Assembly: GCF_013167455.1 (NCBI RefSeq)
Contig: NZ_CP038328.1
Reading direction: 5' to 3' (one strand)
Source of the DNA: Escherichia coli O157:H7
GTDB taxonomy: Bacteria > Pseudomonadota > Gammaproteobacteria > Enterobacterales > Enterobacteriaceae
Length of the DNA: 64,000 bases
Part shown: positions 3,001 to 6,000 of the stretch, piece by piece
Numbering within the stretch: position 1 is the stretch's first letter
How the letters are laid out: every line of letters starts with the position of its first letter
Made by a program: the position numbers

Positions 3001-6000
3001 GTCGTGCTGACGACGAATGAGTATACAGAGGTTAAGGAGGCTAGTTTTGCGGTACCAGCATCGGCAATCAAAGTCACCTGTTTCGTATCACTGACACCAT
3101 AATTGTTCACGCTAACTGTCACGGGGTAGGTGCCGGATTTTGTACCGCTCAGTGTAACTTCAGCCTTGCCGTTGATGTCAGTAATGGCGGAACCGCCTTG
3201 TCCGAGAGTAAAGCTTGCGCTCACATCTGCCGGTAGCGTGAATGTCACCGCCTCATTGGCTAACGGGTTGCCGTTTCCATCAGTCACTGTTGCCTGCAGC
3301 CTGGTCATCCCGACGTTATTAGCGATAAAATTGTCCTCGGTAACGTTAAGATTAACCTGCGCAGTGAGTGTATCCGCAATAAAGTTCACCACCAACTGCT
3401 CACTCTTACCGCCAGCCATCGATGCTGTAACAGTATGAGCGCCTGCTTTTGTACCTTTCAGCGTGACTTTCGCTTTGCCTTCAGTATCAGTAACCACTTT
3501 ACCGCCATCGCCCAGCGTGAAGTTCGCCCTCACATCTTCCGGCAGAGTAAATGTTACCTCACTGTTGGCTATCGCATTGCCCTCTGTATCAGCGACTGTT
3601 GCTGTTAGTGTCGTGAGATCGTTATTGTTGGCAATTACCGGATCCTTCGAGGCTGCCAGCGAGATTTCAGCATTCGCTACGTTCGGCACATAGGTCACTG
3701 TTTGTTGCATCGAATCGCCATTTTCGAGGGTTGCCGTCACTTGGTATACCCCGGCTTTTGTAGCGGTAAAGCTTGCGTAAAAATTGCCGTCGTGATTGGT
3801 CGTATATATAGCGTTATTACTGGGGGTCACACCTTCACTTGGTGAAACGCTGAGGGTTACCTCCTGCTGGGGTACTCCGTTGCCGTAATTATCCTTCACC
3901 TCAATATACAGATTGGTAGTGTCGCCTGCGGAGACTGTATCAAAAAGTGCCTGTAGCAAGGTGAGATGTGCCGTAGACGCATCAGCGTTGACATTAATTG
4001 ATGTGCTAAGCGTGGAGCTACCATTTTCCAGACTGGCCTCAACGGTATCCGGTCTCGCTCCTGATTCTATCGAGGAGCGGGTATTGGTATAAGTGACGGT
4101 AGCCTTACCCTGTTCGTTCGTCACGGCTTGACCGCCATTCGTCATTTCGGCTGTCGCTGCGTTGCTGGTGAAGTTCACAGTCACACCTTTCACCGGAAAG
4201 CCATTATTATCAACGACTGTGGCGGTGATGACGCTGCCGGAGCTGTTCTGCGGGGTACCTGCGATTATGCTGTCTGGGACAGGCGTCAACTCGATAATTT
4301 TTGCCGCCGCTGTGTCGCCAATAAAATGCACAGTTTTGTTGTCGCTGGCACCATTATTAGCCAGTGATGCAGTGACCGTCTGCTCACCAAAGGCAACGCC
4401 TGCGAGAGTGGCCTGCGCGATGCCAGACTCATTGGTATTACTTTCCCCTGGGGTCAGGGTGAGGCCTGAAGAAGCTGTGCTGAATGTTACCGGAAGATTG
4501 TTCACCTCATTGTCGAACTGATCTTTGACCGTTGCAGTTAGCGTTGCGCTATCGACGCCATTACCTGTGATCTCATTTTTTGATATCTGAAGAACAACCA
4601 GAGCCGAGGTTTTGTCCGCCACAAACGTTACCGGCTGTGAATCACTGGTATTGTTATTACTCAGCGTTGCGGTAACCGTATGCGTACCCGCTTTTTTACC
4701 TTTGAGCGTGACATGCGCTTCCCCATTGGCCTGGGTGATGGCAATACCGTTATTTTCGAGGGTAAAGTTTGCCGCCACGTCCTGTGGCATGGTGAAGTTC
4801 ACCGTTATTCCCGCCACCGGATGATTCGACGGATCTTTCACCGTCGCCGTCAGCTGCACGCTGTCGCTGTTATTCGTCACCACCTGTTGAGCAGGGATGT
4901 TCAGCGTAACCTGCGCGTTGCTGGCATCGGGCGCAATATTGACTATCTTCGTATCGTTGTTGCCGTTAGGCAGTGTGGCTTCGGCTGTATGAACACCCAA
5001 AACCGTGCCCTTAAAGGTAACTTCGGCCACACCACTGTCGTTAGTATTGCTTTTGCTCTGACTAAGTTGAGTATCTGCGGGGTTGGTACTGAAGGTGACC
5101 TGTAGATCTTTTACTGCGTTATCAAAAGGATCTTTCACTGTTGCCGTCAGAGTCGTCTCATCCACGCCATTCCCAATGATTTCCGCTTTCGATGTTTGCA
5201 GAACGACAACCGCGCTGTCCTTATCCGCCACGAAGGTGACTGGTTGCGCATCGCTGGCATTATTGTTACCCAGCGTGGCGGTCACAGTATGCGTGCCCGC
5301 TTTTTTGCCTTTGAGGGTGACATGCGCTTCGCCATTGGCCTGAGTGATGGCAATACCGTTATTTTCAAGGGTAAAGTTTGCCGCCACGTCCTGTGGCATG
5401 GTGAAGTTCACCGTTATTCCCGCCACCGGATGATTCGACGGGTCTTTCACCGTCGCCGTCAGCTGCACGCTGTCACTGTTATTCGTCACCACCTGTTGTG
5501 CAGGGATGTTCAGGGTGACCTGCGCGTTGCTGGCATCGGGCGCAATATTGACGATTTTCGTATCTCTGTTGCCGTTAAGCAGTATGGCTTCGGCTGTATG
5601 AACACCCAAAACCGTGCCCTTAAGGGTAACTTCGGCAATACCGTTCTCATTAGTATTACGCGCGTTCAGACTCAGTTGCGTGTCTGCGGGGGAGGTGCGG
5701 AAGACTACTGAAAGATTTTTAACCACGTTATCAAAAGGATCTTTAACTGTTGCTGTCAGAGTCGTCTCATCCACGCCATTCCCAATGATTTCCGCTTTCG
5801 ATGTTTGCAGAACGACAACCGCTCTGTCTTTATCCGCCACAAACGTCATTGGCTGTGTATCGCTGACATTGCTGTTAGCCAGACGAGCCGTGATCATATG
5901 CGTGCCCGCTAACGTGCCGGTCAGGGAGGCGATTGCAGTCCCGTTGCTATCCGTCATGCCTTTTCCGCTGTTGCTAATCGAGAACCGACTTGCGACGTCG

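Follow-up and report, generated by a model that had tools for sequence, protein, structure and literature searches.

The tandem repeat in yeeJ of Escherichia coli O157:H7 is the common two-unit state of a length-variable Big_1 array

The tandem repeat in the adhesin gene yeeJ of Escherichia coli O157:H7 is real, but it is an ordinary feature and is already known as the long YeeJ variant. It was analysed in a window of 64,000 nucleotides (RefSeq assembly GCF_013167455.1, contig NZ_CP038328.1), and all positions given here are those of that whole stretch. The feature is very probably the copy-number-variable core of the YeeJ passenger, an ancient array of three copies of a B-A domain module in which the central units have been partly homogenised. 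The O157:H7 gene carries the common two-unit state of this array, for which four length states exist rather than two.

yeeJ lies at 963-8945 on the minus strand, where the list of open reading frames, the translation, the Pfam matches and the annotation agree with the coordinates that an earlier note on this DNA had given. The large minus-strand open reading frame extends over 963-9020, the ATG of yeeJ is at 8945, and the reading frame is intact for 2660 residues. In a record that is 100% identical over yeeJ, the same coordinates are labelled as "inverse autotransporter adhesin-like protein YeeJ" (WP_001356620.1). As in K-12, the gene has tRNA-Asn/mtfA on one side and a truncated GT9 glycosyltransferase pseudogene on the other. 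The product is composed of an IAT_beta barrel, 16 Big_1 stretches and a putative Invasin_D4/Intimin_C-like C-terminus. For the IAT_beta family (PF11924) the score was 374.9 bits (cut-off 22.3), with residues 144-419 corresponding to profile positions 2-279 of 279. Big_1 scored 848.7 bits, and every one of its 16 stretches begins beyond residue 500. An N-terminal IAT_beta outer-membrane barrel, followed on its C-terminal side by a passenger of tandem Big_1 Ig-like domains, places YeeJ among the inverse autotransporters (type Ve), and the repeat falls in the passenger region, that is, in the adhesin stalk where it had been located before. At the C-terminus, the scores of Invasin_D4 (26.1 bits) and Intimin_C (20.8 bits) were both under the cut-off of 27. 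Residues 1-160 matched no Pfam family at E<=0.01, and the N-terminus was 94-100% identical to that of K-12; a periplasmic LysM domain, a trait of the YeeJ/intimin subgroup, is assigned to YeeJ by Prosite, and K-12 YeeJ binds peptidoglycan (PMC5595812). Surface exposure of the passenger was demonstrated experimentally for the K-12 and UMN026 alleles (PMC5595812). When the O157 and K-12 proteins were compared, identity per window was 78-100% and there was only one gap, of 302 aa, in K-12. The locus is orthologous and the 906-bp block is present, so that the gene is of the long (UMN026-type) variant.

Evidence for the repeat came from seed extension, offset identity and self-blastn. The repeat search gave a start-to-start period of 609 nt with copies at 4477, 5086 and 5695, and the identity at offset 609 rose from a background of 20-40% to 90-100% across 4680-5010 and 5130-5220. 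Self-comparison of the whole gene, run as self-blastn, yielded a single strong off-diagonal match at offset 609 (4520-5301 vs 5129-5910, 790 nt, 85.3%) and a weaker third copy at offset 1218 (4488-4692 vs 5706-5910, 211 nt, 71.6%). Tandem Repeats Finder, the period limit of which is 500, reported nothing in 500-9500. A tandem duplication of about 609 bp at 4550-5990 had been described in the earlier note as recent; the duplication and its period hold, whereas its recent age does not (see below). The blocks at about 4682 and 5291 had likewise been called nearly identical. This is true of the core, where 4682-5010 and 5291-5619 agree at 312 of 329 positions (94.8%), but the full units (4626-5234 vs 5235-5843) agree at only 541 of 609 (88.8%), with 68 of the 609 positions different and a longest common exact run of 74 nt. 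At the protein level, the 203-aa units are identical at 182 residues (89.7%; 81/99 aa between A1 and A2, 101/104 aa between B1 and B2), and nucleotide identity is about 85.5-86% for A1/A2 and 92% for B1/B2. The repeat peptide quoted in the earlier note is indeed present in YeeJ, as FVADKDRAVVVLQTSKAEIIG from residue 1035 and FVADKDSAVVVLQTSKAEIIG from residue 1238, and a third, diverged copy, FVADKTSALVVLQISKNEITG, starts at residue 1441. Repeat families of 32-34 nt with a spacing of about 310 nt represent only the conserved Big_1 core motif and are not further recent duplications. Plus-strand open reading frames at 4680-5105 and 5196-5711 within the repeat are mechanical antisense frames and were not counted as genes.

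In gene orientation the domains follow each other as B0-A1-B1-A2-B2-A3, with A domains of about 99 aa and B domains of about 104 aa, all on the minus strand. Domain parsing and alignment placed repeat unit 1 at 5235-5843, consisting of A1 (5843-5547, 99 aa) and B1 (5546-5235, 104 aa), and repeat unit 2 at 4626-5234, consisting of A2 (5234-4938) and B2 (4937-4626). Ahead of the array lies B0 (5844-6155, 104 aa), an old and decayed B-type Big_1 domain with 50-51% nucleotide identity to B1/B2, reaching about 67-75% at its C-terminal end. After the array comes A3 (4326-4625, 100 aa), a similarly decayed A-type Big_1 domain that is 59-61% identical to A1/A2 at the nucleotide level and corresponds to the match at offset 1218. 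Since B0 and A3 are far older copies (50-61%), the array is an ancient triplication of the B-A module, of which the two central units are alike.

Each 609-nt unit is a pair of Big_1 Ig-like domains, and Pfam, structure prediction and fold search all bore out the Ig-like nature that had been noticed from the sequence. A1 and B1 each gave a full-length Big_1 match (66.6 and 71.3 bits), and the AF2 model of A1-B1 (pLDDT 92.9, pTM 0.79) consists of two beta-sandwiches. The best PDB folds found for this model by Foldseek were intimin D0-D1 (6TPL), InvE (5N40), InvD (5LDY), intimin (1F00), FdeC (4E9L) and invasin (1CWV). A sequence search of the PDB with the two units returned weak matches only, led by phage tail proteins and InvD at E ~1e-4.

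The divergence between the two units is strongly mosaic. Overall dS is 0.34-0.37, exceeding 1.2 in two segments: between A1 and A2 it is 0.155 in the N-terminal part, 1.23 in the middle and 0.10 in the C-terminal part, and between B1 and B2 it is 0.20 over the first 240 nt and 1.65 over the last 72 nt. The most plausible reading of the near-identical patches is that they are tracts of gene conversion or homogenisation. The sharp edges of the pattern (dS 0.10-0.20 vs 1.2-1.65) fit patch transfer in either direction, and the duplication could instead be moderately old (dS about 0.1-0.2), one copy having later received diverged patches from some other allele or gene. We consider such an import unlikely. 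Self-blastn found no other match in yeeJ that could serve as donor of the diverged patches, and A3 resembles A1/A2 at only 30-37% in one 30-nt window of the divergent middle of A, against 63-70% in the flanking windows. In addition, the decayed flanking copies B0 and A3 show that the array is ancient in any case.

K-12 YeeJ (2358 aa) has no intact domain of the A1/A2 type or of the B1/B2 type; in their place is a hybrid that is A-type for its first 36 residues and B2-type for the rest, the two portions meeting in the strand LTATVKDP that both have in common. At the nucleotide level, the K-12 junction is A-type up to GCAACAGT, passes through the shared GTGAAAGATCC and is B-type thereafter. Several strains have exactly GTGAAAGATCC in A, and B2 has it too, at a distance of 906 nt. 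Here, the copy in A1 (5737-5747, minus strand) reads GTTAAAGATCC, one mismatch away from the GTGAAAGATCC of A1 in other strains, and forms part of the LTATVKDP strand; the copy in B2 (4831-4841, minus strand) reads GTGAAAGATCC and lies exactly 906 nt from it. The segment absent from K-12-type genes thus corresponds to 4842-5747 on the minus strand (302 aa), its position being ambiguous inside the microhomology, and comprises the C-part of A1, the whole of B1 and A2, and the N-part of B2. Removal of 4842-5747 in silico left an in-frame protein of 2358 aa with a K-12-like hybrid domain, and the hybrid actually found in K-12 matches Big_1 as a complete domain (73.6 bits over positions 2-90 of the 93 in the profile). 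As judged from these alignments, there is good support for the short allele of K-12 being a derived form that arose by in-frame deletion at a microhomology of 11 nt. In an illegitimate event, separate from the gain or loss of whole units, an A domain would have been fused to B2 out of register with the units yet in register with the fold, and a join at the 8-11-nt microhomology encoding VKDP would have given the widespread 906-bp-shorter allele with its single hybrid Big_1 domain; microhomology-mediated deletion is the probable source of the hybrid. The 906 bp may have been lost in one step or in two (-609, then -297) via a one-unit allele; the nearest match to the K-12 hybrid is the one-unit allele, with 99/100 and 199/204 nt in common.

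The opposite polarity, in which an ancestral gene of the K-12 type gained 906 bp by insertion or duplication of a fragment, is loosely implied where the literature speaks of an "additional 906 bp fragment" (PMC5595812). It would agree with K-12-type alleles being the majority, at roughly 1,600 (an estimate obtained by subtraction) of about 2,900 array-bearing genomes. However, we regard it as very unlikely. The single K-12 domain is A-type for 36 residues and B-type for the rest, and what K-12 lacks, namely the C-part of A together with the N-part of B, is matched elsewhere in the gene by relatives of only 50-60% identity (the nearest, A3 and B0, at 50-61%). Because the missing parts have no close source in the gene, the long form cannot be built from the K-12 sequence, which argues that the short form is the derived one. 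Furthermore, the alternation of B and A is old and regular (B0-A1, B1-A2, B2-A3), and the junction lies in microhomology, as is typical of deletions. Among species-representative genomes, a search with a peptide pattern gave 43 pattern matches with no confirmed relative, and no match was obtained with a degenerate DNA pattern for VNFTMPQDVAANFT; as these scans found no outgroup, the polarity is drawn from internal evidence only. On that evidence, a change from long to short is the direction that the sequences point to.

The length of the array was then compared across strains, and the site proves to be one of length variation, as the earlier note had suspected, with four array states among complete E. 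coli genomes. The array region was found in about 2,900 of the 5,426 complete genomes surveyed. The A-to-B junction was present in 1,279 genomes and the B1-to-A2 junction, at >=90% identity, in 1,214, while the three-unit array was matched in one piece, and so seen directly, in 29. Derived estimates are roughly 1,190 genomes for the two-unit state and, by subtraction between junction searches and not by direct count, roughly 65 for the one-unit and roughly 1,600 for the K-12-type state (906 bp less). The K-12 junction query was unusable for counting short alleles because its half-matches, 461 nt apart, get joined in long alleles. A search with the 810-aa array region retrieved only fragmentary proteins and Shigella sonnei pseudogene pieces and gave no length distribution. 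From B0 to A3, the array measures 308 aa in K-12, 407 aa in F3_13_1_3 (one unit), 610 aa in O157 and SCU-301, and 813 aa in E300010 (three units). The three-unit allele of E300010 has a CDS of 2870 aa, and its array differs from that of O157 by exactly one extra 203-aa insertion.

The domains of the rarer alleles are themselves mosaics. The single A domain of the one-unit allele has an A1-type N-terminus and is A2-type thereafter, and in the three-unit allele the additional B domain is B1-type at its C-terminus, as would be expected from unequal crossover in high-identity patches. The patches of 90-100% identity between units would allow in-register unequal homologous recombination, which would add or remove whole 609-bp units and so produce the one-unit and three-unit alleles; homologous unequal recombination is thus the probable cause of the ±609 changes. 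Within the O157 clade, yeeJ copy number looks static: the sampled O157 entries all had the two-unit span, save those interrupted by an IS element or truncated. Since about 297-305 genomes of the O157 clade keep both the A-to-B and the B1-to-A2 junctions at >=99% identity, turnover appears to be slow and 'periscope-like' dynamics weak.

A recent, strain- or clade-specific duplication of the 609-bp unit, which was how the earlier note had read the repeat, would account for the stretches in which identity is 97-100% and exact runs reach 74 nt, and for B1 and B2 differing at only 3 of 104 residues. It is nevertheless highly improbable. Overall nucleotide identity is 88.8%, with the dS values given above, whereas dS between O157 and the distant strain SCU-301 at orthologous positions is 0.06-0.15. 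The same diverged copies recur position for position in distant lineages: A1, A2, B1 and B2 are 96-98% identical to their positional counterparts among O157, SCU-301 and E300010, against 86% (A) and 92% (B) to the neighbouring copy in the same gene. Because the copies are closer to their positional counterparts than to their neighbours, the duplication predates the split of the O157, SCU-301 and E300010 lineages; moreover, the two-unit state occurs in about 1,200 genomes of many lineages. Repeats in long adhesin genes are a known cause of collapse and expansion in short-read assemblies, and an assembly error had been raised as a possibility; that the true copy number in the strain is other than two is, however, almost certainly wrong, as yeeJ is 100% identical, with equal length and span, in independently assembled complete O157 genomes including EDL933, about 300 genomes have both junction types at >=99%, the reading frame is intact, and the units differ at 68 of 609 positions with no exact run above 74 nt. 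Since these differences and the short exact runs allow ordinary reads to tell the copies apart, the two-copy structure is, on the sequence comparisons, correctly assembled.

Each unit would add two rigid Ig-like domains to a stalk on which a putative C-terminal lectin-like tip stands clear of the outer-membrane barrel. If the invasin rod is taken as a guide, one unit would be worth roughly 7-8 nm of stalk. The lengthening by two Ig domains per unit is inferred, as would be any effect of stalk length on function. We know of no YeeJ receptor. One could imagine that the array is a slow 'periscope', its four length states being maintained as stalk length matches the thickness of the O-antigen or capsule of the lineage; we give this idea little credence, for adaptive matching to the surface layer is pure speculation, and in published assays long and short variants were functionally alike. 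The practical meaning is more modest. The much-used YeeJ of K-12 appears to be derived from a longer form by deletion, and its hybrid Big_1 domain nonetheless gives a complete match. PCR typing on the 906-bp fragment alone will misclassify one-unit and three-unit alleles. Judging from the titles of papers, K-12 YeeJ serves as a surface-display scaffold, and the natural tolerance of one to three units, and of a domain fusion in register, suggests that such a scaffold could be engineered for stalk length.

The length polymorphism itself was reported earlier. Two yeeJ length variants, represented by MG1655 and UMN026, differ by 906 bp, equal to three extra Big domains of repeated sequence (Martinez-Gil 2017, Sci Rep, PMC5595812). 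In the same study, most phylogroup E genomes carried long yeeJ, and long and short YeeJ were both surface-exposed and promoted biofilm equally, with no functional difference. The UMN026-type long YeeJ is the same gene at the same locus with the same 906-bp/302-aa block relative to K-12, and nothing essential is different. Absent from that study and added here are the 609-bp unit, the alleles with one or three units, the microhomology junction and the hybrid domain of K-12, which we take as derived; these additions are minor and have little import beyond annotation.

The array also resembles the Periscope Proteins, surface proteins in which the stalk is built from folded domains, highly similar and arranged in tandem, and varies in domain number from strain to strain. 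A 'YeeJ' cluster with 2-3 repeats is listed in the Periscope Protein table (Whelan 2021, PNAS, PMC8201768 Dataset S1). Its entry A0A192CME6 may be the same locus, although the repeat length is 119 aa there and 203 aa here. That study considered repeats of >50 residues with >=80% identity (PMC8201768), and the 203-aa yeeJ unit, at 89.7%, lies within both limits. Repeat number varies among the homologues, which include one-, two- and three-unit alleles and the -906 hybrid. However, classic members vary widely between close strains, whereas yeeJ has very few units (1-3), of moderate, mosaic DNA identity, and shows no rapid change in copy number between close strains of the O157 clade. With regard to architecture, YeeJ is similar to intimin, invasin, InvD/InvE and FdeC, the other type Ve proteins compared, in its IAT_beta barrel, its tandem Big_1 domains and, putatively, its lectin-like tip. 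It differs from them in being far longer, with 16 Big_1 stretches and an adjacent near-duplicate pair of domain pairs.

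The yeeJ adhesin gene did not remain whole in all of the genomes that carry it. It was broken by IS1203 or truncated in some O157 and related genomes, namely FRIK804 (H41, the H numbers denoting related records matched by yeeJ), NCCP 13918 (H3) and F7349 (H65), so that some members of the clade lack an intact adhesin. In many other genomes (H23-H38), including ATCC 25922, which we take to belong to phylogroup B2, only ~30% of yeeJ was matched, over a span of 2.4 kb annotated as distinct barrel and Ig-like fragments. These partial matches could be the result of a big internal deletion, or they could represent another allele at the yeeJ locus. 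Among complete E. coli genomes, each of the array, junction and three-unit searches returned two places with the yeeJ array in plasmid records.

The window opens with a GT9 glycosyltransferase pseudogene (1-701) whose N-terminus is missing; in the matching record this pseudogene adjoins an IS1203 copy, which lies a short way before position 1. Another IS1203 copy was present at about 27664-28973. In strain ECP19-598, the gene for the large subunit of the phage terminase is split by a 1.3-kb IS1203 copy; the window has no such copy at 33504/33505 and therefore comes from a different O157 strain.

A lambdoid prophage extends from 10443 to ~53800 and adjoins tRNA-Ser. According to the annotation of the near-identical record, its integrase is frameshifted, its major capsid gene is truncated, a tRNA Ile/Arg/Arg cluster is located at 24445-24694, and its effector cargo comprises espJ and an 'EspF repeat-containing protein' gene, the latter being presumably tccP/espFU. 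Inside this prophage-borne EspF-repeat gene, a tandem repeat was found at 51912-52652, with a period of 141 nt, 5.3 copies and 97% matches. The gene is longer in the window than in strain ECP19-598 by 141 nt, which is one repeat. The copies of this 141-nt array are far more identical to each other than the yeeJ units are, and the array is truly copy-variable.
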